A stretch of 63,193 nt of DNA, counting the filler, from Rhabdomonas costata (lineage: Eukaryota), in the NCBI GenBank assembly GCA_019059605.1. It is 49 parts of 49 records of this genome, joined end to end, with 100 filler letters (N's around TTAATTAATTAA, not from the genome) between each part and the next. Parts side by side here need not be neighbours in the genome. Positions count along the whole stretch, not along the records: positions 52,969 to 54,159 come from JAHMHO010024238.1; 48 more parts are not named here. One strand, given 5' to 3'. A program made the position numbers and the translations under genes. The notes beneath the pieces are model-generated. The model saw only the letters and a list, made by a program, of their open reading frames with translations. It was not told where the DNA came from and made no database searches. This document shows, piece after piece, positions 4,543-57,953 of the stretch (its first letter is position 1; every line of letters begins with the position of its first letter).

Positions 4543-6657
4543 CGCCCAGTTGCGGCGGAGGGTCTAACAGTCAGTGCATTGCTTGCTTTTTATTCCTCTC
4601 GACTGCGGAGTTGGTGTCCATTGTCCGTCGGCGCTGCTCTGTTGGCCCATCGCACGCGGTGATATACGTTTCACGTGGCAGAGAATGGCTTGAGTAACCA
4701 GCGACGACGATATTGATCTCATTCAATGCACGATTCTGCGTCTCGGCGCACTGACACACAAATCGGTGGTAGGAAAAGGCTCCGTCACTTCTGAGACGCC
4801 GGATAAAAAACAAACACCTCTGGGACCCTAAAGTGGATACGTGCCCCATGAATTTCGCCTTGCTGCTTGAATTCGACAGTCCCAGGAACTCGTGTTTGTC
4901 CTGCGTACGACCGCAACGATAACCACCCCAGCCACGCCAAGCCAAATGCCACAAGACGCCGACGTGGGCAACCCAGCACGCTCTTGGTTCGAAACGTCCT
5001 TTGACGTGTCCTTTTCTTTTTTCAAGAGTTACCTTCGTCATTGTTTCCGTGGAAGGCCTGTCTCCCAAAAAACANNNNNNNNNNNNNNNNNNNNNNNNNN
5101 NNNNNNNNNNNNNNNNNNTTAATTAATTAANNNNNNNNNNNNNNNNNNNNNNNNNNNNNNNNNNNNNNNNNNNNGTGTGGGGTGAACCGGGAGCTTCGAT
5201 GTAACATTTGTAGTGTATGTACTGTGCTTGCCACTCTATGCACTGTCATTCGGACCCTTCCCCCTTCCACAAAATCGTTCCAGTGCGGCAAGCACAGTAC
5301 ATACACTACAAATGTTACATCGAAGCTCCCGGTTCTCCGCACTCCAAAAGACGCCGAAAATTGCGGAGACTACCGAAAGCTGTGCAATTGGTGGCAACAA
5401 CGCAGGCGCAGACAAGAAAAGGGTGCCACTGCTGACGAGGACAGCTGAGGCATGGAAGACGCAAAAAAATGCAACGGGCAGAGAGGAGGGAGGTGCTCTC
5501 TCGGGCCCAGTGGGCTACATTCGCTGGCTGAAGAGGAGAAGCTTCAACCCGGCCTGAAGAGCGAGTGGAGCACACGGTAAACTGTGCAAGCCAGACATGA
5601 ACCACACATTAAGACGGCTTTCAAATGCAGATGGACGCTCCATTTTGCTGACTTCAGAATTATTCAGACAAACTTAAATAAGCTTCAGACAGGGCCTCTT
5701 ATTGAAAAAAATTCCACCATAAATTTTCTTCAGTTTTTTGCATGTTTTTTTTTTTTTGCAAAATTGGAAGGGCGAACTTTTACTGGGCTGGAGAGGGGGT
5801 GGGCTCTTGTCCCGCGTCGAAAAACGCTTTTAGCACGCAGAGAAGGCGCTTAGGAGATGGGCTGCAATGTGGCCAAAGACGACCGAGTGCATGTGCCAAT
5901 GAGGGAGAATCCTTTTGCGATGGTATTCTCCACGTTGCGTTGCATGATATTTTGCGAATGTTGGGACCTCAAACCGCACGGGAACTTCGTAGGCTAGGCA
6001 CAACATGCTACCCTGTGAGATTTCCGCAAAACATAGGTTCAGTTGGGTAGATTTGTTCTGGTACAGAAAAAAGGACTGGAAATTTCTTCTCAGTTTTTAC
6101 ATAAAATAAAAGGCCAAGCACTTAAAGCACGACACAAAACAATACCAACACAATACACACCACGAAACACAGCTACATCTCCCATGCACCGTTCTAAGTT
6201 TTATGCGTTTTAACTAGAAGAGAATTGAGCAGGCTGGGGTGAGTTCCGGTAGGTAGGCGGGAGCTTGCGCAAATGGCTCCATCCCCCTAATCGGAAACAC
6301 CACTGCAAATTGGAGGGCCACAGGCAAGGTAAATTCAATTCAGCCCACACACANNNNNNNNNNNNNNNNNNNNNNNNNNNNNNNNNNNNNNNNNNNNTTA
6401 ATTAATTAANNNNNNNNNNNNNNNNNNNNNNNNNNNNNNNNNNNNNNNNNNNNGTTTTGTTTGAACGCGAGTGTGCAGAAGGTCACGGAGATATGAAGAC
6501 GTCCCATGAATGCACCGGTCCCCTCCTCCTCCTCCTCTTCCTCCCAATTGAGCCACACTGAGCTTCCGGATAAACAACACATCAGCTGAACACAAAAAAA
6601 CTGTCAATAGGTCCATCGGTCCATGGGTCCATAAGCGCAGCATTTCTGTGAAGGAAA

Positions 6658-12742: not shown

Positions 12743-12929
12743 GCGCGCCCATTTCACCTATAAATTGCGCTCCAAGCGAATGGAGCAGACGGATTCGTTT
12801 CCTTTTCACACACAAACACNNNNNNNNNNNNNNNNNNNNNNNNNNNNNNNNNNNNNNNNNNNNTTAATTAATTAANNNNNNNNNNNNNNNNNNNNNNNNN
12901 NNNNNNNNNNNNNNNNNNNGGTTTTTTGT

Positions 12930-13790
12930 ACTTTGCTCGGTATTCTCTCGGCACTCATACAACTTATTAATTTTTTTGAATTGTCTTTCAATGTGCAGTT
13001 TTTAAAAATTGGCGGGAAGTGAAGAAACTTATTATACATTTCATCATTATTAGGTACTTGTATATCAACTTCATAAAAACCATATGTAGTTTTCATCAAT
13101 TGATGAATATTTTTATCATTATCAAATTTTTCATATTTCAACATACCTGTTGGCATCTCTTGTAAAACTCCATAAATATAATGCGTTTGCATCAAAGCCT
13201 ACAATTTTTTTATCAGTTTACCTTCGTCACCCAGTGTGTATTTCCCATTTTGTCTTATAACTAGTCTAGATCTTGTCACATCTCTTTCATGATACCGATG
13301 AAAAACAATTGAAGGACCACCTACATTATTTTTTCTCAACAAATAGTCTTTGTTTTTCTCATTAATTAGGTATACCTTGTTGTTGTAAACTTTTATTTCT
13401 TTTGTTACATTTCCTTCATCCTCAACTATTTCAGTATCACATTGGACATTATCATATTTCTGTTCATTTGAGTTCTTGAACATGATTTTTTCTGCTAATC
13501 CTGATAAAGATATAGCGTCTTTGTGCATATCAAAACCTAATTTATAATAGAATTCTTTGTGCTTAGGGATTGCTTGTATTAATGGTTTAACATCTAAATT
13601 ATTATAATATTTAAGATAATCAAACATATTTTTCATATTTTCTTGTTTCCAAACATCCTTTAGTTTATTATATTCCTCTATTCTTGTTTTTGTTTTTTAA
13701 AAATATTTATAATCTGGTAGTTGTTTATCATACAGTTTATTAAAACTTGTCAAGTATCTATAAGGAAAATGAGCTTTTATCATATCTGTT
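12930..13790 (-). pseudogene. Protein-primed family B DNA polymerase (Polinton/Maverick type), disrupted
   Basis: AT-rich and intronless. Motifs in order: KAHFPY, DYLKYYNNLDVKPL, GGPSIVFHRYHE, IVGFDANALYLW (motif A, after a frameshift at ~13200), QEMPTG, GFYEVDI, FPPIFKN. Contains a stop and frameshifts. Confidence 0.85.
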
Positions 13791-14212
13791 TCACGTGACT
13801 TTAGTTATTTATCTAAACTACAACAATAGACAAAAACGGAAAAGAGAGATCAACTGGTCTGTCTTATCTTGAGTGGATTATAAAGCAGGATTGGTTCCGT
13901 CATGTTGATATCATTAAAAAGGTAATTGATGAAGTCAAGAATTTAGATATTGAGCATGATACAGAGCAAGAAGATAAACCTAAAATAGAAAAGAAGAAGA
14001 AGAAAGACCCTAAAACTGTTAAAATCAGTACAACAGAACAAGATAAGACATTACATTTTCAATGATTCATGAAAATAAAAGTGTGAGTTTATTAATATAA
14101 TGGATCAAAACANNNNNNNNNNNNNNNNNNNNNNNNNNNNNNNNNNNNNNNNNNNNTTAATTAATTAANNNNNNNNNNNNNNNNNNNNNNNNNNNNNNNN
14201 NNNNNNNNNNNN

Positions 14213-20052: not shown

Positions 20053-22532
20053 GTCGAATGGCCTTTTGCAGTCGAGCTTCAGTTATGATTGGTTGTGCGC
20101 CGTCAACTGGGTAGTTGCACAGCGAATAGGAAGATCTGAGCCGAAGTTGGTGAGCACACCCCACTCCTATAGGGGTAGCCCCTGACAATCGGGGCACAGG
20201 TCCGGCAGGCCGGCAGAATAGGATAATTGGGTGCTGCTTGAAGGCCCCCCGGAACGACGGTGGGCGTTGATGTAAACACTCTCCGGAGCGTAACAACAGG
20301 GTTGTTTGTAAGCGAGTGAAGTGAAAAGCAGAAATGCATCTACAGTGGGAAGCAATCGGGAGCAGAAAGGGATGAATGCAGAATCTGGCCATAAAAAGTA
20401 CAAAGAAGCAGGAAGAAGGAGCAGGAAGGATCCGATAGAGGGCAGAGGAAGAATCGGTAAAACCCTCTCCTTATGTTCTCTTTGGCCAGATTCTGCATTC
20501 ATCCCTTTCTGCTCCCGATTGCTTCCCACTGTAGATGCATTTCTGCTTTTCACTTCACTCGCTCACAAACAAANNNNNNNNNNNNNNNNNNNNNNNNNNN
20601 NNNNNNNNNNNNNNNNNTTAATTAATTAANNNNNNNNNNNNNNNNNNNNNNNNNNNNNNNNNNNNNNNNNNNNCTTCCACGGCCGAGTCATTTTTTGCTA
20701 TGTGTGTGCTTCTATGGGTATGAGTGCGACAGTGTTGCATGCGCCATTTCGGTGCTGGGTTAGGTGATGGTATTGCTGGATGGGGCTTTGCCTCGCGTGG
20801 TCATGTTGGTTCAGTGCTTTCGATGCGGCAGACTTCCAGATTGGTGCGTGCACGCGTGCGTGTGAGAAAAGACGTGTTTTTGGGGTCTGACGCTTCTGGG
20901 GACGCCTCTGCTGCCAGTCGGTGGTCCTTCAGAGACCTCTAACTGGTGACGAATAAATAAATCATAGTTGATGAGAAAAATAACGTCAGGCACGGCAGGT
21001 GACGCCAAGCACCTGGCTTCACGGGAGCAGGTTTCGAAACGGCAGTGGGAGGGGGAGAGGACGGGAGAGCTGGAACGGGAGCTGGGGAAGGGACAGCCGT
21101 GCCCACCGCTGCGGGAGGGTGCCCACCCCCTGCAGCCTCCACCTGGAGCAGCAAGTGGGTGGGGTCACACAACCACACAAATACATCCTGGAAAAACGCG
21201 CGAACGCCACCAGGGCAGGAAAATCCCTGTTTTTTTTCCACACATCTCCGCAACTCGCAAGCCACGGCCCTTCTGCAGTCTCGGATTCACGGAAAAATGT
21301 ATCGCCAGCTTATTTTTTTTACGCTTGACATCATCAAACGGCACAGTTCAGCGGCACAACCAACAGCAAAGCAAAAATGCACAATGACATAGAAGAGAAC
21401 TGAAAGGAACGGAACACCTCGGAAAAACCCTGACAATGGCGTCTGTACTGGCCTATGACTCAGCATTCATAGCAGTCATAGTGGTACGGGGCTGGGTTGT
21501 GTGGTCTGCTGCAGCCCACTGGGCCTTCCGCTCGTTCGATTCGTCAAGCACACCCGATGATATCCACCACCGTTTCCTTGAAAAGGACATTGCTACCGAA
21601 TTCAAGAAGGGCGCTGATGCTGATGAAGGCCACCACCTTGATTGACAGGAAAAATTCCCATGGCATTTCCCGGGGCATTGAAAACGTTCTACCCTGACGG
21701 CTGAACACAGTGCAGTACAACGAAGTTCCCCATAGGCAGCAAAGCAGGGAAGCGTGGACCTGCACCCCACGGCTCACCACCAGCACCACCACGGAGCCCG
21801 CCGGGGCGGCAAGAATCTGCGGGGTGCCGTTCCCCCCGGAGGTCATCGGGGAGCCACCCAACCNNNNNNNNNNNNNNNNNNNNNNNNNNNNNNNNNNNNN
21901 NNNNNNNTTAATTAATTAANNNNNNNNNNNNNNNNNNNNNNNNNNNNNNNNNNNNNNNNNNNNGTGTGGTTTGGAGCAGCAAGTGCAATGCCTGCAGGCG
22001 CTGGCGCAGAGCTTCACCGAGGGCTTTTCCTCAGACGACGACACCAATAACGCAGAGCGCCAGCCTCCCCAGGCACGTGCCTGTTCTTGTGCATTTCTTC
22101 CCCTTCCATGTTCTCTCAGGCACAGTATTGCTCGGAGATTTGCGCTAAGCGCCTCACTGGTACTGCGTTCCTCCCCAATTATGTCAAGTATTCTGCCGTA
22201 GCATGCATGGCCTCCGGTTGACCTGTTGAGGAGTTTATGTTTGCGCTGACCGATGATTTTCCAGTCTCTTTGGTCGTGTCGTTTGACTAGTCTCTTGAGC
22301 ACTCTTGCGGCTGAGTGAACCGCCTTGACCCGTCACATTGTGGTGGAGGTGGTGGTGGGGCATTCCGAAGGGTCAGCTGGGTTATAGAGGATCTTGTGAG
22401 GGAAGGTAGTGCCAATACTATGTGAATGACTTCATTTTGCTAGTGTTGTAATGGTTCCTCGCGTGAGTTCATTGCCGGTATGGATCTTACGGGGGGACAC
22501 TGTATGGGGATTCCCATCTAAGAATGTTGCTG

Positions 22533-22860: not shown

Positions 22861-23559
22861 GATATTTTCAAGGGGGCGGGGCGTTAAACGTTTCGAGTCG
22901 AAATTTGTCGAACTTAGTCGAAATTTGTTAAACTTTAAAAAATCGGCATCGGTAAACAGTAAACCCCCTTTCGCAAAAATAACATCATCCACGGAGTTCA
23001 GGAACAGTTAACCAAAGCTCCGTGATGAGAAAATGACTTTATTAGGAACACGACTTTTTACCGTTTGACGCCGATGAACGTTCAACACCATTAAACAGCA
23101 AAAGTCAAGTTTTTGCAGGACCCCACCCCATGACACGTCCCCGTCCCCATCCCACNNNNNNNNNNNNNNNNNNNNNNNNNNNNNNNNNNNNNNNNNNNNT
23201 TAATTAATTAANNNNNNNNNNNNNNNNNNNNNNNNNNNNNNNNNNNNNNNNNNNNGTGGTGTTGTAATTTTTAATGAATCTGTTTTACTTCCTTCATAAA
23301 GATTAATAAATTTTTTGTAATAAAAAACTTCTTGCATTTTTCTTTATCTTTATTTCACTATATATTTCATGTGATTCTAATTTCTGTAGATGGTATTTGT
23401 AAATATTTATCTAAACAACTATACTCTATATCTTTCATAAATTCTCTGTTTTTTAGATATAATTCAACCAGAACAATTATACCAATCATATAACAATGCA
23501 TTATAACTGTCAATCCATGACTAAATATCAATTGAATTTCCTGTTTGATTTCTTCATTT

Positions 23560-24196
23560 TCTTCATAAAATTTTTTATTTTTATTATTTCTATCATCTGG
23601 TATTTTTACTTTAGAATTATCTTTTGCTTCTAATGTTGTATTTGTTGCATTATCCCAGAATATATTTTGTTGATAATTCCTATCATACATCATAAAACCT
23701 ATTAATAGCCATACTTCGAAATGTAGAAGGTGGTGCTGTTAATTTGGAAGGTTCAGGACTTAGAAAATTATTACAATCATTGATATGTTTAAGACTCATT
23801 TTTGTTACGTTAATATTATTTAATCCTCCTCGTTTGCTTTTGATAATGGCATGTTACGATTTGATAATAATATAGATTCTATATCCGTAAGATCTTCATT
23901 TGGTAAAGCTCGACAGTTACATATTGTACTAACACCAACATTATCTACAGTATATTGTATATATCATCAAGAACCAATACATTTTTATTCTTTTTATTCT
24001 TAGTTGGTATGATTGGTCTATTATTAGGATTAATAAATTTTTATAGAAGAGTAAGTGCTAATTACAAAGATACACTTGAAATTGATGCTGCACTAGTCAC
24101 AAACGGTTGTTTAGCATTATTATATTGCATATGTAATTCAAATATAATGTTTGATTTTATTGTTCCCGTATCAATTACATTATTTTTATTAGCCAT
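23560..24196 (-). pseudogene. Frameshifted homolog of a conserved Mimiviridae/Imitervirales hypothetical protein
   Basis: Very AT-rich and intronless. Joining three frames gives GVST..PNEDLTDIESILLSNRNMPLSK/SKRGGLNNINVTKMSLKHINDCNNFLSPEPSKLTAPPSTFRSMAINRFYD/RNYQQNIFWDNATNTTLEAKDN. I recall the pattern D[VI]ESILSNRN..SK..C.xFL.P..S.LT.PP..R...INRFY....Q.NIF.D...NT.LEAKDN from mimivirus-like genomes; not searched. Confidence 0.7.
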
Positions 24197-26188
24197 GTAC
24201 TATTTACGCAAATTATAATGTTATTTTGTTTTCTATTAAAGTATTGGAAAACAAAAAATATAAGTGCTTGGCAAAGTTGGAGAAGAGAGGAGGATGTTTC
24301 TGTTCAAGCCAGAAACGTTTTCAACGACGATAACGTGGATTGAGAGAGGAAGGACGGCAACAATCGCATGAGCCTCGGAGATGCCCACATGAATGAACAC
24401 CGTGGCCGTCCAACGTACTTCACCCAGGTATCATCGCCACCACACACNNNNNNNNNNNNNNNNNNNNNNNNNNNNNNNNNNNNNNNNNNNNTTAATTAAT
24501 TAANNNNNNNNNNNNNNNNNNNNNNNNNNNNNNNNNNNNNNNNNNNNGTGTTGGTGGTTGGTTGACAATGAATTGACAGAGGGTGAGTGTGTGTGCGAGA
24601 GCGTGCGAGGTAGTGAGCGTGTGAGAGAATCGATGTGTCCCGTGCCTCCTCCCCCTTCCCCTCTTTCCTTCTCGTTGGTGGAGCTTGCCTTAGCTGCTCT
24701 ACCGCAAGCGCGCCCCTTGTTTGTTTCTTTGTTGGCTTTTTTGCCCTTGTGCCTTGTGCCGTGCTACTTCTTTCTTCCCCGCTTCCGGTACCGGCCGCCT
24801 GCCTATCTCTCCTTGTCTCTCGCTCTCTCGATTCGCCGCCTTTTGCTGTCCTGCACTCTTCATCTGTCAAATCCTGCTTTCACGTGATTTGTTTGTGTCT
24901 CCCTTCCTGCAAGCTTTTTTCTTGCATTTCGTACTCTCTTTTCATTTTTATGCATTGCTTATCGCCGGGGGCCGTACATATGGGGAGGAAACACGCTCGT
25001 TTGTGAGTTGTACAGTAAGGTGAGAAATGGGGGGAAAGTGGCAGGCCCTGGTGTGTTGTATATTTTCCCGGTGCTCAGTTTGCCCTTTTTTTTTTGCCTT
25101 TCTTCCTGTTTCACCTTGCTGTGCTCTGTGACTTGATGTGTGTGATCGTGACGTTTGTGTATTGTCCTTCTTTTTCCTCTGCTGGTCCACCACTACCCAC
25201 CGCACTTCATGCAGCACCGTCTGCACCACTGGTCGTTGGCCCTCCATTGCTTGCTTCATTCTTGTGGACGACTAAGATAACAAGGGTTAATGTTAGGGTA
25301 CATTTTTGTATTGGGGCGACGCCGAAGCAGGACCGGGGTCTTTTGTATGTACAGTGGGCCTGCCACCTTCTATACGGAAGATCTCCTTGCAAAGAAGTAT
25401 CAGGCTTGGAAAGTTCCACTGTATCTTTTTTTACCCTTGCCACTTCTGCCTGATTTGTTGGGCCCAAGAAGCATTCCAAGAATCACGCGCCGCTCCGATC
25501 CGCATAAGGTATTCTTCGAACGCACTTACGAGGGCAATTTGTGGAGGTTTGCAAGATAAGCATTGCAAACCTGTGCCCGACTCGCTGAGTGGGCGATTTT
25601 CCGGTTTTGCCCTTCATTGCCTCGATTTCTATGGGTTTAGGTGGCCACCAAAGCTGCCACCAGGAAGTGCCGAGAAATGGAATTGTTGAATTGTCTCTCC
25701 TCCAGGTTTTCGCTCTTTTCTTTGTCCACCCCCCCAACCNNNNNNNNNNNNNNNNNNNNNNNNNNNNNNNNNNNNNNNNNNNNTTAATTAATTAANNNNN
25801 NNNNNNNNNNNNNNNNNNNNNNNNNNNNNNNNNNNNNNNTTTTGTGGACCGGTATATACCGTGCCTTGTTTTTTAAAGTCCGAAAGAAAAAAAGAAATGC
25901 GCATAAGACAAGGGGTCAGCCGACGGATCCTCACCCGGTAACTTCAAAAAACAAGGCACGGTATATACCGGTCCACAAAATCTACTGAGTGTTATTGCAG
26001 AACGAAATAGCAACAACTTCCACGCTTGCATTGAGCTGGAAGTGAACTGGAAGTGGACGAGACAAAAATGCGCATTAATAGCGAGACGATAAGGAGCGTC
26101 CCACTGAAAGAATGACTTTTGGTGGATCAGCTTGGGTGTAAACCGAGACTAGCACGAAAGATGCGCGAAAAAGGACAAGGGAAGAAAC

Positions 26189-26983: not shown

Positions 26984-27152
26984 GTGTCTTTTTTTTGGAA
27001 ACAAAAAAAAACCAAATGAGAACGTCATANNNNNNNNNNNNNNNNNNNNNNNNNNNNNNNNNNNNNNNNNNNNTTAATTAATTAANNNNNNNNNNNNNNN
27101 NNNNNNNNNNNNNNNNNNNNNNNNNNNNNGTGGTGGGTGTGTTTGGTTTTGG

Positions 27153-27287
27153 TTTTCAAAACTTTTACCTAAAAAAAGTATGAAATATTGGTTAGACTTA
27201 CAGACTGAACATGACGTGGAGTATGCAACTAAAAGTTATGGTAAGATAAAAATAGAGCCTTTAAATACTAAAAAGCAAGAGGAATAG
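27153..27287 (+). CDS. Bacterial HigA-like antitoxin, C-terminal fragment
   Basis: FSKLLPKKSMKYWLDLQTEHDVEYA resembles the HigA C-terminal S..FWLNLQ..YDL motif; the 5' end is truncated by the contig edge. Confidence 0.55.
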   Translation, partial: FSKLLPKKSMKYWLDLQTEHDVEYATKSYGKIKIEPLNTKKQEE

Positions 27288-27292
27288 TAACA

Positions 27293-27625
27293 ATGGCACA
27301 TATAGATACGTTAAAAGCATATGACGACTTAATATCTACTGGAATAAAAAACGATCAAGCTAGAGCGCATGTTAGAACTTTAGAAGCTAGCTTTGATAAT
27401 GTAGCAACTAAAAAAGATTTAGACCTGCTGGAAGAAAAGTTAGAAACAAAATTAGGAACTAAAATAGATGCTTTGGAAGCAAAAATAGACTCTAGGTTTA
27501 GAGAAATGGACTCAAAGTTCGCATCCATAAAAACTATGGGATGGGCTATGTTTGTAGTTGTTTGTATTCCTATATTACAAAATTTATCTGGTTTGTTTAG
27601 TATTTGGAAACAGCTGGTGAAGTAA
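27293..27625 (+). CDS. Bacterial DUF1640/CCDC90-like coiled-coil protein with C-terminal membrane anchor
   Basis: IDTLKAYDDLISTGIKNDQARA..VATKKDL followed by a coiled coil and a hydrophobic tail; purine-rich SD-like AAGAGGA upstream. Confidence 0.8.
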   Translation: MAHIDTLKAYDDLISTGIKNDQARAHVRTLEASFDNVATKKDLDLLEEKLETKLGTKIDALEAKIDSRFREMDSKFASIKTMGWAMFVVVCIPILQNLSGLFSIWKQLVK

Positions 27626-27637
27626 GAAGTAATCCGA

Positions 27638-27829
27638 ATGAACACTATAAATAAACCAAAAAGCCACGATACTCAAGAATTTGCTGAATTAAAATCAGGC
27701 ATAGAAAACCTCATTAAAATTGATCGGCTTAAGTTCTGGCGTCAAGAAAACAAAAAGATTAGGCAAGAAAAGCTTTACAGAAGATACTTGAAGCTTAAAG
27801 AGCGACGAAAGCAAGGCGGGCGTACATGA
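27638..27829 (+). CDS. Small basic bacterial hypothetical protein (63 aa)
   Basis: Tightly packed co-directional ORF; its stop overlaps the next start (ATGA). Confidence 0.6.
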   Translation: MNTINKPKSHDTQEFAELKSGIENLIKIDRLKFWRQENKKIRQEKLYRRYLKLKERRKQGGRT

Positions 27830-27996
27830 TTTGGAAGAAACCTACTGACCAGAACCAAGCACCAATTACCCACGGCTCTCAAGTTGGTACACAACTAGAT
27901 CTAGATTCAGAAGATGAATTTACTACAGCAGACTGGGTGGAAATTGGACAATATATTGACGAGCTGAAGAAAGAAATTCTTAAGAAACCCAAATAA
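27826..27996 (+). CDS. Small bacterial hypothetical protein (56 aa), missing from the ORF track
   Basis: MIWKKPTDQNQAPITHGSQVGTQLDLDSEDEFTTADWVEIGQYIDELKKEILKKPK*; ATGA overlap with the upstream ORF suggests translational coupling. Confidence 0.6.
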   Translation: MIWKKPTDQNQAPITHGSQVGTQLDLDSEDEFTTADWVEIGQYIDELKKEILKKPK

Positions 27997-28054
27997 TGAT
28001 AAAATGTACTGAAACATTATCTGATTTTATGAAATCTACAAAAAAGGGGCTTTT

Positions 28055-28321
28055 ATGACTACTTTTACTGGCACTGAAGAAGACGTTGTAGTTACTATAA
28101 AAAATCTTGTAGAACTTGAGTATGAAACTAAAGAAGCTTATGACCAAGCTATTAAGCGGTTAGAAAACCTTGATTATAAAGTAAAACTGCGTGAATTTTG
28201 CCAAAATCATGAGCAACACATATTAAACCTGTCTAAGCTGTTGCAAAACCACAATGAACAACCACCTATAGAACCTAGCACTATTAAAAATTGGCTTACT
28301 AAAGGCAAGGTGGTTATTGCT
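28055..28321 (+). CDS. Bacterial ferritin-like (DUF2383/PA2169-type) protein, 3' truncated
   Basis: LVELEYETKEAYDQAIKRL..KLREFCQNHEQHILNL..WLTKGKVVIA fits a ferritin-like four-helix bundle with ExxH-like ligands; SD AAGGGG upstream. Confidence 0.8.
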
Positions 28322-29712: not shown

Positions 29713-30820
29713 GGGTTGTGGGACAGAAGCAGGTGAGAGCGCTCCTGGATTCGGGGGCGTCAGAATCTTTTGTAAGTTAGGATGTGGTGATGGAGTTGGG
29801 GTTGAAGCAGTTTCCTTTGAAGCAACCTCTGACAGTTAGAGTGGCCAATGGTAAAGGTCTGGCTGTGACGCATTTTGTCACATTGGTGGGGAGTCTTGGG
29901 CCAATGCCTGTCAAGTTGTTTTTGAGAGTAATAAAGACTACGATTCCCATTGCTTTGGGCTACAAGTTCTTGGTGCGTGTGCAGCCGTTTGTGGAATGGA
30001 AGAGGCGATTGGTCAGAGTGGAACGGAAATGAGATACAGGCACTTTTGAGATACAGGCACTCCCAGCGGCAGAGTCGTTTCTTATAACCTGCCCCGGTAA
30101 AAAGCAGCACAGTTGGGAGAGGGGCAGTCTTGGCAACGCTGGGGAGGAAGTTTCAGCTCTTCAGTGCGTTAAGGCTTAAGGGACAGTAACGAACCAAGAG
30201 AAGTAGAGGAAATATCACCAACAGCGGCGCATCAGAGAGAGCTGGCGAGATCGCAGGAACCAAAGTGGAAAGCAGAAAATAAGTTAAATAATTCGCCTCG
30301 GAAAGTGGTGGAAACGTTAATTAAGGAAGTTGATCACACGGTCTGTGGACCAGAATGTGAGGTGCATCCCGTACCGCCGGAGATACTGGAGATGAACAAG
30401 GAGTTTTCCCATCTCTTTCCAGAGAAGTTGCCATGTGGACTCCCTCCCTCGAGACCAAAGAACCATAGGATCGATTTAATGCCGGAGAGTAAGGCCACAG
30501 CGCAGAGACTGTACCTTATGTCACCAGCGGAAGATCAGGAGCTGATGAAGCAGCTTAAGTCGCTGCAGGACTTGGGCTTTATCGAGCCGGCGACATCGCC
30601 GTTTGGGGCGTGTTGTTCGTTCCAAAAGCGAACTGGAAGCTGAGGTTGGGTGTGGACTTCCCCCCGGTGAATTCAATTACGGTGACGGACTCGTACCCGT
30701 TGCCGAGGATTGAAGAGATGATTGACAGGGCGGGGCACTCAAAGTGGTTCACGAAATTAGATTTGCATTAAGGCTTTCACCAGATCATGACCCATCCGAC
30801 GCACATTGAGAGGACGGCAT
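29713..30820 (+). mobile_element. Ty3/gypsy pol relic: aspartic protease + N-terminal reverse transcriptase
   Basis: ALLDSGASESFVS (protease), then GLPPSR..HRIDL, LGFIEPATSPFGA/VLFVPK..LRLGVDF, DSYPLPRIEEM..FTKLDLH*GFHQI..ERTAF. Stops and a frameshift are present. Confidence 0.95.
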
Positions 30821-31004
30821 TCAATGTGCGTCGGATGGGTCATGATCTGGTGAAAGCCTTAATGCAAATCTAATTTCGTGAACCACTTTGAGTGCCCCCC
30901 CCACNNNNNNNNNNNNNNNNNNNNNNNNNNNNNNNNNNNNNNNNNNNNTTAATTAATTAANNNNNNNNNNNNNNNNNNNNNNNNNNNNNNNNNNNNNNNN
31001 NNNN

Positions 31005-43451: not shown

Positions 43452-45297
43452 GTGTGTAGCGCGGGGGTCCTGTGGGGGTCGTGCAGCGCGTAGAGCAGCG
43501 TAAGGCTGGAATTGATTTGTTTAAACTGTAGCAAGGCCACTCCGTCTCAGCTGCGTATAACAGTGTATGCATGCTGAAATCTTCTGCCGACCGACCGATG
43601 CCACCTTCGGCACTTTTTGGGGGCTAGGATAACCAAGATATTGCATTGCCGGAACTTCAGCGTTGTTCCGGTTGTTCACCACTGGCAGTTGGAAAGTGAT
43701 TTGCCCACCCGCCGGACTTCAATTTTTGAGATTTATATCAGTCTTATCCCCGATCCCGGATCCAAGCTTATTTCACAACAACCCTCAGTAAAGCGTGGCC
43801 TCCTGATCGTATGACAACCACCCNNNNNNNNNNNNNNNNNNNNNNNNNNNNNNNNNNNNNNNNNNNNTTAATTAATTAANNNNNNNNNNNNNNNNNNNNN
43901 NNNNNNNNNNNNNNNNNNNNNNNTGTGTTTTTTTCATTCGGGTTTTCTCTTTTGCTATTTCTCTTCAGCGCAGCTCACTGAGGGAGCCAATATGCGCCCA
44001 CTGTTGTGAAGTAAGAGAAGGAAAACCCGTGCCTGCTCTGTCCGTGTGCTGGGGTTGCGCATCAATGGTGCAGAACTGGGGTGGTCCCTCTACTCGGGGT
44101 GGAAGAAGACTTTTCTTCCGCGGCGGTGTGGGCGGCATTGGTGGAAGATGCGCGGCCGCAGTACTCTCAGCTGGCCTGTTGGGAGGTCTGGCGTGGGGGC
44201 TCCTGAGAACGTCCTCCCGAAGCTTTTCCCTGCCGTTGTGGGCGAAGGATGCTTTGCAAGTGGGGAATAATTCTGGGATCGCCCATGCACACGGCCCTGG
44301 CTCCACCGAAGGTCGGTGCTTCGTATGTGGGGTGTGTCCACGCCTGATGCTGTCCCCTTCACGGAGTCTATGCGCCCCGATGGTCCATTACATAGGGAAA
44401 CAAAAAGGGTGCCTACATCTGCATTGGAAGGTGCCTTCCCTGTGTATTTCGGTTTCGTATTAGCGCCTCATCGGAACCCACTCGCACCGCCTTCCAAATG
44501 TCAGTCCAAATCGAAGAAAATCCTCCTCGCTTCTTGCTACGTATTCCTTTGAATCCCAGGGCGTGATGTGCCCCGCATTTCAACCCCACATCAGCAAACT
44601 GCCATCATCGCTGCTGGCGTTCCCTCCCAGTACATCCGGTGTTGAATGCCTGGGAAAGCATGGCGGCTCCATATCCTCGTTGCCTGGCACATGGAAATAG
44701 CAAAATTTTGAAATAGAGGCTTCTGCTCTGCATCCACTGCGGAGGTCCGAGAGAAAGCTGGTAGTTATAAGAGAGCGGTACCCACCACCATTTTTTTCGG
44801 TGCTGCCGCACCTCAGGACGGGCCCTCCCTCCCTCTCATTGTGGAGGGGCCGCGGACTGCGCGGAGCGGATCGGTCAGCTTCGCGCCAGACTCGAGAGCC
44901 ACGGCGGAGTGCTTCCCTCGGAGTGGGCAGGTGAGCCCGTCGCACACCCCACACGCATAGCTTAGCCTTCCACATTTCCTCTCACCTCGCCCACCTCTGT
45001 GCCTCAGCCGCTCTCATTTCTCAAGCTCTCCCCTCCACACCATACTCGAACGAACGAACGAACGAACGAACGAACGAGCTCTCCGTGATTGAACATTCTC
45101 GATTCCCCTGAGGGNNNNNNNNNNNNNNNNNNNNNNNNNNNNNNNNNNNNNNNNNNNNTTAATTAATTAANNNNNNNNNNNNNNNNNNNNNNNNNNNNNN
45201 NNNNNNNNNNNNNNGGTTGTGGGGGGAAAAGATACGCTTCATCACTAACTGGAAAAAATATATTGTATGTTACACCTTATAATCAACTATGTCTTGA

Positions 45298-45610
45298 CAT
45301 AGTTGATTATAAGGTGTAACATACAATATATTTTTTCCAGTTAGTGATGAAGCGTATCTTTTCCCTCCACGTGCATATTCACTCCATATCATAGTTAGTT
45401 GATGTTTATTTAAAATATCTTTGATTTCATTGTTATGCTTCTGGATCTGCAAAAAAAATGTTCTTCAGATTTAAGATAATATGTACTTACATCTCTTGAA
45501 TTGTATTTCAGATTATCTACGTATTCAAATACTATAGGTTTACCGCGTATTTCCTTTTGATATTCTATTTTTAGTCCTCCTATTTCATTTTTTAATTCAA
45601 AATGTGAGAC
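45298..45610 (-). pseudogene. AT-rich viral-like fragment: possible PolB C-terminus fused to a superfamily 1 helicase (Polinton-like virus type)
   Basis: EIGGLKIE..(frameshift)..LTMIWSEYARGGKRYA..KNILYVTPYNQL gives a degenerate Walker A (AGxGKS/T) and motif Ia (VTPxNxL). Abrupt GC shift at ~45610. Confidence 0.55.
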
Positions 45611-48820: not shown

Positions 48821-49362
48821 CTGCTCCGCCCCACCCGCAGACCCTTTTGAATTTTCCACCACCAAAAAGAAACATAAAAAAGGGCTAAACTACATAACGA
48901 TAGATACACCCCACAACTCAGAAGAACGTATGTGACGTATTTCAACCTGGTCATCAGACCCTATATAATTGCCATCGTCACCACCCCCNNNNNNNNNNNN
49001 NNNNNNNNNNNNNNNNNNNNNNNNNNNNNNNNTTAATTAATTAANNNNNNNNNNNNNNNNNNNNNNNNNNNNNNNNNNNNNNNNNNNNGGGTTTGGGGGG
49101 GCTCCGTTATCTCCATCGCTGTTGTTTTGAATCTCGCTGGATTCTACGCCAGATTCCGGGGATCCCTCATTTATAGTTTGTCTCAAGAAGCCATGCGGGA
49201 GGGGGAGGGGATGCGATACTTGAGCCATACGTTTTAATTATGTCATCCGTCTGGCCCCTAGGATGCCGCAACTGGTGCACCTTTTGAGTATGCATCCCAA
49301 TATGGATCTCTAACTTCATTGCTGTCCACATACGGGTTCCCATTGCCGCGCTTGCCCCTGCA

Positions 49363-50132
49363 GTCTTCCCGCCCGGCAGAAGGCCCTGCAAGAGCTTTTC
49401 CTCTGCTTCAGTCCGAGAGTCGAGTTTTTCCCCTCTGCTGGGATGCTTTCCTCGGCTCGGCTTGAAGAGTACTCTTTGCTGGTGGTTTTGCCAGAACCCG
49501 ATCCCCTGCTGTGGTCCGAGCTTAAAGATAACTTGTCCCAGGCACTGCTGACATCTTCAGAGCCCCTCAGGGTGTTGGGTTTTGTAGCCGTGAACGAATT
49601 ACAGAAGGCTGAAGAGTTCTTCAACTTTCCCATGTTTCCGAAGCCACCGACGTTTGCGCAAGTCTTGGAATTCCTGGAGAACTTTTCCGAAGCCCCCGCA
49701 CCCGATGGTCCCCACCTGGATGGTTCCAGCAGTGCTGTGGAGCCACGGGTTGCCTCCATGCAACCAACGAAGAGGGTGCTCGTCGCCGACGACATTAAGC
49801 TCAACCAGACCGTGTTCAAGCATATGCTGAAGCAATGGAACATCGAGGCAGATATTGCGGATAACGGGCTAGAGGCGATCTCGATGTGCGAGCAGCATGT
49901 GTACTCGGCGGTGTTCATGGATTGCCACATGCCCTTTTGCACGGGGTTTGAGGCAACCAGAAGGATCCGGCAGATGGATGGTTACCGGAACGTCCCGATC
50001 ATCGCGCTGACGGCCGCTACCTCTGAAGAGGATCGGGACGCTTGTGAGCAGTGCGGGATGTCTCACTTTCTTGCCAAACCGGTGACGTTGGCCTCACTTC
50101 GAGCTGTGCTTGGACATGCCTCGATATTATGA
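49363..50132 (+). CDS. Terminal exon with response-regulator receiver domain (hybrid histidine kinase type)
   Basis: RVLVADDIKLNQTV..ADNGLEA..VFMDCHMPFCTGFEATRRIR..VPIIALTA..GMSHFLAKPV has the acidic pair, phosphoacceptor Asp, Thr and Lys intact. Confidence 0.93.
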
Positions 50133-52710: not shown

Positions 52711-52968
52711 GTACGTACGTGTATGTGCGCTCGCTCAACTTCCAGTGGAATTAGAGATGTGCGTGGTGAATATGTGTGGGGCTTAACACAGTTATAGAAG
52801 GAGAGCAAAAAAATATGAAACTTGGAAAATGGGTTCGGGTGCAAGAAGAATTCATAGTGAAACACAAANNNNNNNNNNNNNNNNNNNNNNNNNNNNNNNN
52901 NNNNNNNNNNNNTTAATTAATTAANNNNNNNNNNNNNNNNNNNNNNNNNNNNNNNNNNNNNNNNNNNN

Positions 52969-54159
52969 GAATGGGAGCGTTGAAAAAGGTTCTTCGGTTC
53001 ATTTGAATTCGAAGAATTTGTCGAACTTGCAGAGTTACACCACCTAGGCAGGAATCCCCGGTGGACAGTCAAGTTGCCCCGACAGTATGCATGGGAATTC
53101 AGGTCACCTGATGGTTCAACCATCAAGTTTGAAGTTTATGACGTGAATCCATTATTGTCGGTTGTAAAGTTTTTCAGCGGGGACGCAGACTTGCAGATCA
53201 ATGAGGTGGACCGTGAAAGGTAAATCCACCAGCTGAGATTTGAACCTAGTAACGCCGGAATGTCCTTTGAAGCTATGTTGCAGAGGTTCCTTGGAGTCCT
53301 CGGGCAGCTGAAGCCCAACAAAATCCTCGTTAAATGGAACACTGAGGAGGCTGAGCTGCTGAGCAAGTTCCTCCATTTAAATGCCAGAGTTGCACATCCT
53401 CCATTCCCGCCGATACTCCCCTGTCACAGGGTTCGAGTCAAGAAGCCGTGAGCCCTTGGCCCCGAAGTACAGAAGACCATCCCTGGCCATCTCAGTCAAG
53501 TTGTAAAGGCCACATGTGGATGTCACCGAGGACAACACTGCGGAAATCCGAAAAAGCCGAAGCCAGAAAATGTGGACCACTGCAGCCTTGTGGAATATTT
53601 GTACTACGCCCTGTACGGGTTACCAGGGGCAAAGTAGGTCCGTTTCCTAAGAGCAAGTACCCCTCGTTTATGAGATACTCATCCCGTGAAGACCAGGAAT
53701 GGGATCCCGCTGAGTATGCGCGGTTTATAGAAGACGTGTACCGACAGTGAAGGGGTTGAAGGAGAAGTGGCATGGATGGTGGTCATATATACTGTGTGAA
53801 TCCCTGTTGAACTTTCTTCCCTTGAGCCGCATCGAAAGAGAGAATAGAAGAGGAGTTGCATGGTTGCAGCGGATGGAGACTGGTATCACATTGCATTGGA
53901 TTGAAGAATAATTGACTTAGACTACAAAGTTTGCATGGTGAGCAGTAGGATAAGGTGAGCCGTTAGGTGATCGGAAGTTTCGTCGGTTGTTGAGTACACC
54001 TCCTTCCTAGCAGGGGATGGTGTAACGGCTCAGGACGGGTAGGTATCACGTATGCAAGAGAAGTTGTTTCGCGACAGCTCGGTGGTTTTGAAAGAGATTC
54101 CGTAAGGGAATGTTGAGCTCAGAGCGGGCTTTACCGGCTCTGTGTCTTTACACAAAACA
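52969..54159 (+). mobile_element. Probable 3' end of an LTR retrotransposon: decayed extra ORF (52969-~53750), PPT (~54009-54020), LTR from 54021
   Basis: Intronless frame with scattered stops, followed by AGCAGGGGATGG|TGTAAC, the usual PPT-TG junction of Ty3/gypsy elements. Confidence 0.6.
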
Positions 54160-54356
54160 NNNNNNNNNNNNNNNNNNNNNNNNNNNNNNNNNNNNNNNNN
54201 NNNTTAATTAATTAANNNNNNNNNNNNNNNNNNNNNNNNNNNNNNNNNNNNNNNNNNNNGGGTGTGGGGGTGTGGGGTTCAGATTCTCCTCTCCCATTCA
54301 GCCCACCACATCTCCACATCTCTTGATCTCCCTGTGTGTGGTTGTGGGACTTGCAG

Positions 54357-55171
54357 TACACTCCGCTTACGTTTCTCCCGCTGAACTTGCTGGAGCAGTT
54401 TCACCGGCTGGCGAACTTCTTCTTCCTCCTTGTGGTGATTCTGAACTTTGTCCTGAATGTGTTTGGAAAGGAGCTCGGGGTGTTCCCTCTGGCGTTTGTG
54501 CTGGCGTGCACCGCAGTGAAGGACGCATACGAGGACTGGAGGAGACACAGGTGCACGTTGGAGCACAATTTTGACCCAAGTTTTATCCTGATGTTTCGAA
54601 ACTATTCCTTTCGCTCAACCTGAAAATTACACCATTCACAGCATATGCCCTTGCGGCATATCCTCGGGCTATTTGCTGCGGGATGTTTCAGAAAATCCTA
54701 TTACATGCTCTCTTTCTGTCGCGGCTAACAAGCAGATGCAGCGTTGACTTGCAAAATGGGATGAGGGGAATGTCTTGGACGTTGTGGTAGAAGGTCGGAG
54801 AAGGTTGCAATTTTGGAATTGTGTCACCCCCCCCCAATGCTCGTATTGCACAACGTGCCTAAACTGCGTTTTGTCCATGAGGGGATCCTTCTGAGAGAAC
54901 TCGGCCGCAAAGTTTCGTTTGCTGCTGGGATAGGGGGATACGGGGACTCCCTGAAAGCACTCTGGCAGCTGACAGTCAGAAACCAAGAATTGACGTGCGG
55001 TTATGGGCGAATCGGAAAAAACTACGGCCACTCATTGATCTCTTTTCCTGCAGGTCGGATCGTGAGGTCAACAACCGTCTGTGCGCCCGCCTCGGTAAAA
55101 ACGGCGAGGAAATGCCGTGGAAGTGGCACAAGCTGTGCGTTGGGGACTTGGTGAAGATCCGCAGGGATGAG
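54357..55171 (+). CDS. P4-type ATPase (phospholipid flippase), N-terminal exons
   Basis: Exons 54357-54550 (YTPLTFLPLNLLEQFHRLANFFFL..PLAFVLACTAVKDAYEDWRRHR) and 55054-55171 (SDREVNN..WHKLCVGDLVKI). Confidence 0.95.
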
Positions 55172-56050
55172 GTCGCCGAACATCGCGTTTCCTTTCGCAC
55201 AGATAAGGACACAATCTAAATTTGAATTTTCTACGGAGAGGTGAGGGAGTGAGACATAGCCAACGTGGAACTCTCAGGGTATGGACTGTCGGGGGGACAG
55301 GGATGGAGGGAGAGAGCCAGGGAGGGAGAAAGTAGACTCTTTCCACTTGGCCAGAAAGTTGGAAGTGAAAATTGTTTCCGAAACAAAATTGTGTCGCCAC
55401 CGCCAGTCCATACCCTGAGAGTTCCACGTTGGCTATGTCTCACCCCAACANNNNNNNNNNNNNNNNNNNNNNNNNNNNNNNNNNNNNNNNNNNNTTAATT
55501 AATTAANNNNNNNNNNNNNNNNNNNNNNNNNNNNNNNNNNNNNNNNNNNNTCATCCGTTTGAAAACAAACAATGATCTGAGGGGCGAAAACGAAAGCGAG
55601 GAGCTACATGTATGAAGGCAAACGGGATAGGACAGGGCATGAATTAGGGAGGGGGGGAGGGGTCACATAGAATCGATCTTATCCTTCGTTACATAGCTTC
55701 TCTGCAGTTTGGAATGAAGTGACAGCCCGCTGCTCCGCGGCTCCCTTATTTGACGCGAGTTTAAGGAATGAGGGATATTCACGAAATTTTAAAACAGAAG
55801 GCTCGTTGTGGGAGAAAGAACACGCATCTGGTCTGCTCAACAAAGTGTTCGTGAACAAACAATCAATGAACCCCCATAACTCAAATTAATCGCAAACGCC
55901 ATGTGCGAGACACACGGACAAGACAAAGCAACGACACAGGGGTGGATTCTACACCAGATATCTCGAAAATACTCGGCCTGCAAAGCGGGACCAGGGTGGA
56001 AGATGCAAGGGAAAGCAAAGCCCAGCCCAGCCAACCCAGCTCCCAGTTCT

Positions 56051-56741: not shown

Positions 56742-57687
56742 NNNNNNNNNNNNNNNNNNNNNNNNNNNNNNNNNNNNNNNNNNNNTTAATTAATTAANNN
56801 NNNNNNNNNNNNNNNNNNNNNNNNNNNNNNNNNNNNNNNNNTGGTTTTGCGCCACGTAGCACCACGCTATTCGTGCACTGACTCCAGCTGTGCTGGGCCA
56901 AAATGCCATGAATCCCAACTTTGGCGTCACGGAACCATCACATTGTCAGAGGAAGCACGAGCCCACCCTCAAACACGAGCAGAAGATATACATGACAGCA
57001 ATATAACAGCCATGGTAATGCTTTGGCTTTGGCTGGGTTGGGTTTGGTAGCGGAAGTTGTTGACATTAGAAAATGATGTTGCGGTACGCAAGGGGAAATA
57101 GAGATTTTCATGAAGAGGGGGGGGGGAGATCGACAGGACATCCACAGTACACAGGGGCACAGCTAACAAAACACCACTGCGGCATGCCTGGTTTGCACAC
57201 GTTAGCGCCAGGCTGGCGTGCAGGCTGTGCTCGACGTTTGGGTGGTGCGTTCTTTCAGGTTGTGCTGTTGCCAACGGTGCCTTCAAGCCAAGATTGGCTT
57301 CATGAAACCACCACAACATACGCCAGAGGATGAACAAGCCAACCCTCAAGCACAGCCAAGAGATTAGCATACCGGCAACAACGCACTTGTGGTATTGGTA
57401 GTCCTATGGCGTGGCAAGCAGTCACATTTAATTCAAGAACCAGCCCACCGCAACCAACGACCCCCCCCCAAGAAAAAAAACAGCAGAAGAACAAAAGACT
57501 CTTTTCAGTCCTCCAACAAAGGCAGCACAGAAATAAAGGGTCTGGAATCCACACCCCTCCCGCTGCGTGGAAACAAAACGCCGTCAATGAAACCCAGCTG
57601 CAGGATTCTTCCCAGTTTCCGGAAAGCAAATCAAGATTTCCTGGCACAACGCCTACCTTACACCTTTGCAACTCTGCAGGAGCGCAC

Positions 57688-57953
57688 CTGTTTTGCGACG
57701 GCCTCCGTGATCAGCAAGGGCACCCCAAGCGCCTTGCACGCCACCTTCTGCAGCGCTACCGCCTGCCCCACGGCCTCCCCCACCACAACAAACCACTTCA
57801 CCACATCGCTCCCCATGTTCCCAAAGGTCACCATGGAGCTGGCGATGCCCACCCGCAGACCCAGCAAAGAGTCCTCTGCAGCCGCGGGAGGCTCCGAGGA
57901 AGGCGTTTCGGGGCGTAGCGGAGGGGTGGTCACGAGGTATGCCAAATGTCGCC
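57688..57953 (-). CDS. Class III nucleotidyl cyclase-like domain, catalytically degenerate; paralog of 675-1192
   Basis: LGLRVGIASSMVTFGNMGSDVVKWFVVVGEAVGQAVALQKVACKALGVPLLITEAVAKQ|GT aligns without gaps to the contig-1 copy. The 5' boundary is approximate. Confidence 0.82.

Follow-up and report, generated by a model that had tools for sequence, protein, structure and literature searches.

A dead copy of an unnamed, repeat-borne gene, possibly an accessory gene of a retroelement, on a 1,191-bp contig

ORF3-type accessory genes of LTR elements are already known. In the sections of Rodriguez et al. 2017 that deal with them, the Vesta and Juno LTR elements of bdelloid rotifers carry ORF3s strongly homologous to DEDDy exonucleases, DEDDy ORF3s are also found in Penelope-like Athena elements, a Maelstrom-like Cys-His-Cys motif is remarked on in connection with the rotifer ORF3s, GDSL-esterase ORF3s likewise occur in bdelloid Vesta/Juno elements, and extra ORFs in plant Ty3/gypsy elements are mentioned (PMC5408684). 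An earlier note on the contig described here proposed an LTR-retrotransposon end carrying an extra DEDD/Maelstrom-like nuclease ORF and took this arrangement to be undescribed; for DEDD-type ORF3s that claim is wrong, the arrangement being in print for bdelloid Vesta/Juno in those same sections (PMC5408684).

The contig is part of a 63,193-bp window, the whole stretch of DNA that was analysed. Its ORF resembles the Vesta/Juno ORF3s, as those sections portray them, in being a separate non-env ORF between the element body and a polypurine-tract (PPT)-like/TG junction, in having no membrane segment and in occurring as many decayed copies. Unlike the contig's family, the rotifer ORF3s are strongly homologous to DEDDy exonucleases or SGNH hydrolases and directly follow a demonstrated pol, whereas here no known domain is matched and no pol or LTR pair is seen. 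The family differs, too, in having no detectable relation to any exonuclease. Extra ORFs of plant Ty3/gypsy elements are lineage-restricted, fast-evolving, of no assignable function and located near the retroelement 3' end. The family is like them in its lineage restriction, fast evolution, lack of an assignable function and 3' position, a likeness of description.

The decayed reading frame and its protein family

The ORF lies on exactly one 1,191-bp contig between 100-nt artificial spacers (52869–52968 and 54160–54259). Altogether, 48 such spacers (N-run/TTAATTAATTAA/N-run) occur in the window, and the 49 segments that they delimit measure 1,179–1,197 bp, with G+C contents from 28 % to 60 %. 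As the window is made of 49 unrelated ~1.19-kb contigs joined by spacers, neighbourhood-based readings across the spacers are void, and for the ORF contig the window supplies neither a pol nor an LTR pair or target-site duplication. On a contig of this size an apparent element end is also the end of the data, which comprise 15 nt upstream of the main frame and 139 nt downstream of the PPT/TG junction. The features of the contig are listed in Table 1.

Table 1. Features of the ORF contig (window coordinates)
Feature	Position	Strand	Basis or remark
Whole contig	52969..54159	.	49 segments, 48 spacers
Main part of decayed ORF	52984..53634	+	217 codons, X at stops; homologues
First in-frame stop, TAA	53221..53223	+	Translation, homologue alignment
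Second in-frame stop, TGA	53449..53451	+	Sense residue in homologues there
C-terminal 38 codons, shifted frame	53634..53750	+	Aligns with C-termini of P0002/P0015 and L002; stop 53748–53750
Non-coding spacer, ORF to block	53751..53991	+	Not alignable with L002
Conserved 42-nt putative cis block	53992..54033	+	Versus L002 1827–1869, 77 % identity; core GGATGGTGTA.CGGC.CAG
PPT-like run AGCAGGGGATGG	54009..54020	+	10/12 purines (two non-purines in 12); by pattern only
Putative 3' LTR start, TGTAAC...	54021..54159	+	TGTAAC at 54021–54026; ends with the contig after 139 nt

The peptides quoted in the earlier note (FGSFEFEEF, PRQYAWEF, R*IHQLRF, GMSFE, KILVKWNTEEAELL, CGCHRGQH and DHCSLVEYLYYA) do all lie in one plus frame, and this frame is interrupted by stops as the note had said (the TAA and TGA of Table 1). 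Both stop positions are sense residues in the homologues, and at the first stop the window copy is short of ~6 codons of the conserved GW..CQ[KR] stretch that the homologues possess. A further in-frame TGA (52981–52983) stands directly before the main frame, which has no start codon before residue 93. The ORF end previously placed at ~53750 is indeed reached at 53750, but only in another frame: the quoted frame stops at a TAG (53635–53637), and the stretch 53634–53750 translates in the shifted frame as VGPFPKSKYPSFMRY...VYRQ*. Since the homologues run colinearly into this stretch, a one-base frameshift near 53634 is indicated; homologues and shifted frame share the motif VG.F....[FY]P..MRY...W.P.E. 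The ORF thus amounts to ~255 codons as far as the contig extends. Two premature stops, the one-base frameshift, a short deletion and the missing start make the window copy a pseudogene: judged by its sequence, the ORF is a real gene in a dead copy, and this copy itself does nothing. That the stops reflect introns or an alternative genetic code was rejected, because the stops of the window copy and of L002, a related locus described below, fall at different alignment positions; wherever either has a stop, other copies carry a sense residue or are shortened by a small deletion. With the contig masked, blastn and tblastx detected no other copy of it or of the related loci L001–L003 in the window. 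Rfam has no match on the contig, no tandem repeats were found, and a dinoflagellate spliced-leader relic gave 0 matches.

A phmmer search of 1.84 billion representative proteins with the read-through translation (X at the stops; cut-off E ≤ 0.001) gives 13 matches, 12 of them judged real (E 3e-19 to 1e-3, identity 29–51 %). P0011, a 1,943-aa repetitive protein that aligned in six short stretches, was left out of the relatives. Four more were added, three by a profile search of a 5.8-billion-protein collection and one by cluster look-up. All 16 relatives are metagenomic fragments of 93–191 aa, on contigs of 544–1,512 nt in the 13 cases with a reported size; all lack a name, and no Pfam domain is precomputed for any of them. 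A single-sequence word-index protein search passed 0 of 102 candidates, and a search for longer or fused protein forms, weak in itself, passed 0 of 8,000 scored candidates. The relatives from the protein searches and the metagenome loci described below come from across samples, which bears out the expectation that the sequence is multi-copy.

The conserved motifs of the family are LAE.H, PRWT..LPRE, W.[FY]R..DG.K.Y.G.[YW]D, GW..CQ[KR], KI.IK[GW]N..EA.LLSKF, HPPI, H..QH and HC..VE.LYY. Conserved Cys/His positions fall in W..C, H..QH and HC..VE.LYY. The proteins are basic (pI mostly 9–10), and no membrane segment is predicted in them. Pfam, NCBIfam and PHROGs give nothing meaningful for the family, and none of 21 members matches an RT or integrase Pfam family at E ≤ 10. 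The empty Pfam result and the missing membrane segment agree with the earlier statement that the ORF is not gag, protease, RT, RNase H, integrase, chromodomain or env. A GIY-YIG reading of the N-terminal W.[FY]R..DG.K.Y[FC]G hairpin was dropped, the libraries having given it no support.

Three related loci, L001, L002 and L003, were found in a second metagenome scan. A first scan yielded 0 of 38 candidates, genome contigs 0 of 26, and viral contigs 0 of 39 and 0 of 69. Identity is 88.5 % between L001 and L002 (1,130 nt) and 99.4 % between L002 and L003 (877 nt). L002 carries two in-frame stops and a frameshift, L001 a frameshift. The ratio dN/dS between L001 and L002 is 0.19 in the correct frame of the ORF (124 codons, 6 skipped; Sd 18, Nd 16), against 0.64 and 1.52 in off-frame controls (113 and 121 codons). 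The value indicates that the protein was under purifying selection while the two lineages diverged. Taken at the level of sequence, this is a previously unnamed, repeat-borne, real protein family; it occurs now as many diverged, mostly broken copies.

The selection record, together with the own start codon present in the homologue ORFs, would also suit a host multigene family of which the contig holds a pseudogene, with no mobile element involved, and no transposition gene has been found next to the ORF. That reading is nonetheless quite unlikely, since most copies are broken and show sharp homology boundaries with unrelated flanks, the contigs that bear them are all very short, which is typical of repeats in metagenome assemblies, and the 16 fragments are uniformly nameless and free of Pfam domains. 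The strand is also purine-biased, with sense-strand purines at 61–64 % in L001–L003 and 54.5 % in the window contig.

The 3' block and the carrier of the gene

The junction of AGCAGGGGATGG and TGTAAC that the earlier note read as PPT and LTR start is present at 54009–54026, and it falls within the only non-coding block conserved in the distant copy L002. The proteins of the window copy and L002 are ~35–48 % identical over their aligned pieces, and elsewhere the two contigs have no non-coding similarity. The block is detected by blastn at E 0.004. Its local-alignment score of 34 compares with 20.7±2.2 (maximum 29) in 500 dinucleotide shuffles, 0/500 of which reach it. In both copies it is colinear, 240–300 nt after the ORF, and it straddles the predicted junction, a G-rich purine run being followed by TGTA[AC]CGGC. 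A PPT followed by a putative TG-starting LTR is recognised at 54009–54026 by pattern and conservation only. Conservation across the junction speaks for a 3' element that acts in cis and is of the retroelement kind. RNA structure predicted for the block is not significant (z -0.44 and +0.37).

Within the block, GTACA stands 22–23 nt upstream of TGTA[AC] in both the window copy and L002 and forms a short inverted pair with it. The pair flanks a pyrimidine run followed by a purine run, and no significant RNA structure is predicted there. A 19-nt pattern of the block has 7 matches in bacterial genomes, where ~17 are expected by chance (an estimate); no family ORF lies beside those 7, and viral contigs give 0 matches.

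The best explanation, to which we give a probability of roughly 0.45, sees in the contig one dead copy of a gene that sits close to the 3' end of a repeated sequence of retroelement type, with an LTR element as the likeliest kind. Its repeat nature is supported by the high identity and sharp homology boundaries of L001–L003 and by the stops or frameshifts in several copies. The purine-rich sense strand also speaks for this reading. The 42-nt block, which follows the ORF at a distance of 240 nt, would comprise the polypurine tract and the opening bases of the 3' LTR, and its conservation would reflect the demands of plus-strand priming and integrase recognition. In that case the gene itself would be an ‘ORF3’-type accessory gene with its own start codon, and its product most likely a zinc-dependent helper that binds or processes nucleic acid in the element's own replication, and probably not an envelope protein. 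We infer this role solely from composition and the conserved Cys/His, that is, from basic proteins with conserved Cys/His positions and no membrane segment. A retroelement accessory gene of this kind would add one more unannotated ORF3-type protein to an already diverse list. The family opens no new question by itself, and the window copy is dead; its clear selection record nevertheless makes the family worth a structure determination and a Pfam-style entry.

Several observations stand against an LTR element. Neither the window contig nor L001–L003 show a pol, an LTR pair, a primer-binding site or a target-site duplication. No linkage to gypsy pol or paired LTRs, which the nuclease proposal had asked for, is seen. 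L001–L003 have no pol within 650–730 nt upstream of the ORF. Over this stretch, and for that subfamily only, neither RT, RNase H or integrase nor any Pfam domain is found. Similarity between L001 and L002 is lost upstream of ~L001:80 / L002:84, ~650 nt before the ORF, and the shared boundary begins with GAAGAGGAAGA. This sharp limit looks like a repeat terminus without pol.

The same limit, with nothing alike beyond it, is one point for placing the ORF on a small self-contained or non-autonomous ~2 kb repeat without its own pol, either a non-LTR-type retroposon that relies on mobilisation in trans or an element with the ORF protein only, in which the conserved block would act as a 3' UTR recognition element. 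The ~650 nt upstream of the ORF look non-coding in the L001/L002 subfamily, judging by dN/dS over ~430 nt upstream, where the three plus-strand frames (136–141 codons) give 4.38, 0.64 and 0.85, and the search for longer protein forms returned no fused form. L003, one locus of three, joins L002 only from L002:404 and looks 5'-truncated, and L002 has an (AAG)8 run (2143–2166, ~45 nt before the contig end) that would suit a non-LTR tail; neither feature is confirmed in a second copy. The (AAG)8 run and the GAAGAGGAAGA boundary could represent a simple-repeat tail or target. Even so, a small repeat remains a doubtful carrier, if one to be taken seriously: it rests on three loci on short metagenome contigs, which can be chimeric at repeats, no second copy confirms a tail or 3' boundary, and the block, a G-run and then TG, has the form classically seen at a PPT/LTR junction and shows no significant RNA structure. 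L002 contains no internal direct repeat of at least 17 nt.

Carried further, the ~2-kb L001/L002 unit could be a complete mobile element, with the ORF protein, which matches no known family, as its mover, a new small eukaryotic transposase or recombinase. The sharp 5' boundary, the 650-nt non-coding leader, the single ~280-aa basic Cys/His-rich ORF and the conserved 3' block would fit such an element, and the copy in the window would then be one of its dead relatives. We regard this as highly improbable.

Positions 1–136 of L003, which have no match in L002, read ...LLKVDISNAYNTV... in one frame, which we take to resemble reverse-transcriptase motif A; Pfam gives nothing for this part at E ≤ 1. 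Should the motif be genuine, L003 could either derive from a longer element by deletion or have inserted into another retroelement.

The nuclease reading

The earlier note likened the ORF to a DEDD-derived, zinc-binding, Maelstrom-like domain of RNase H fold, which could be used for counter-silencing or RNA/cDNA processing. DEDD exonucleases have an RNase H-like alpha/beta fold with a five-stranded sheet, whose first strand bears a conserved acidic ExoI (DxE) motif, and the Maelstrom domain has a zinc-binding Glu/Cys/His/Cys set. The family is like Maelstrom (MAEL) and DnaQ-like DEDD proteins in a loose pattern only: it conserves H..QH and, near the C-terminus, H-C-x-x-V-E with an H-x4-acid spacing. 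The confidently modelled core, a predicted helix-strand-helix-strand arrangement, would also be compatible. Two further hints of an RNase H-like fold are at noise level: Pfam UvrC_RNaseH, found at E 0.091 in a single member of the 21, and RuvC, which Foldseek places at ranks 2, 4, 10 and 46 (E 0.56–2.1, TM ≤0.24).

No sequence or profile match links the family to these proteins, the fold searches give none above noise, and the proposed first acidic motif is not conserved. The ‘xExE’ segment, described earlier as an acidic strand, varies and is not acidic in the homologues, the FEFEEF of the window copy aligning with HEFWEL, YSFDTI, RMGIVF and VESFIK. At E ≤ 10, 0 of 21 members match Maelstrom, RNase_T or any exonuclease Pfam model, and no similarity to DNA_pol_A_exo1, RNase_T or Maelstrom was found in these 21. 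The family profile searched against all PDB sequences gave three unrelated matches (E 0.68–0.9). Against E. coli templates, hhalign probabilities are 0.07 % for DnaQ, 0.16 % for RNase T and 0.58 % for RNase HI, no better than the SodB control (0.35 %); because the templates are single E. coli sequences, this is a weak negative.

Structurally, AlphaFold2 gives mean pLDDT values of 52.3 for the window copy and 54.9 for P0004, the latter with a helix-strand-helix-strand core of ~55 residues above 80. With these poor query models, the best Foldseek match in PDB has E 0.43, the best VIA match in a wide search has Z 3.3, and nothing rises above noise. Since both models are poor (pLDDT 52 and 55), the fold searches speak neither for nor against a DEDD fold. 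The ESM Atlas model of P0004 (pLDDT 0.36) gives TM values all ≤0.36 and no feature match, and the N-terminal half scores 0.77, below the lead threshold. The DEDD/Maelstrom proposal thus draws no support from Pfam, the PDB profile search, hhalign or the fold searches. We consider it very unlikely, and the nuclease and counter-silencing interpretation is unsupported.

Other segments of the window

Several segments contain pieces of eukaryotic genes: a P4-ATPase N-terminus, a receiver domain, spermine synthase and RRM. The first is a PhoLip_ATPase_N match (phospholipid-flippase N-terminus; 54327–54623, +, E 2.1e-12) and the second a Response_reg match (49314–50129, +, E 1.4e-23), both ordinary eukaryotic gene fragments. 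Given these gene pieces and the spread in G+C, the source of the window looks like a fragmentary, eukaryote-containing and possibly mixed assembly.

Three AT-rich segments (12920–14112, 23256–24447 and 27130–28321) have 28–34 % G+C versus ~50 % elsewhere and may be of organellar, viral or foreign origin. A 165-aa ORF in one of them (13202–13696, -) has no Pfam match. Near-perfect inverted repeats, or foldbacks, occur at 20302–20572, 45219–45370, 5177–5342, 55246–55446 and 25840–25980, mostly near segment ends, and may be amplification or assembly artefacts. A 107-nt direct repeat, 83 % identical, is common to two segments (674–780 and 57687–57793) and represents a dispersed repeat.

In segment 29713–30904, the frame 30173–30640 (+) resembles, by eye only, a Ty3/gypsy protease-to-RT junction (LPPSRPKNHRIDL...SPFGA); Pfam returns no match for this frame. 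The same segment ends with an 82-nt inverted repeat whose arms (30728–30809 and 30821–30902) are 99 % complementary.
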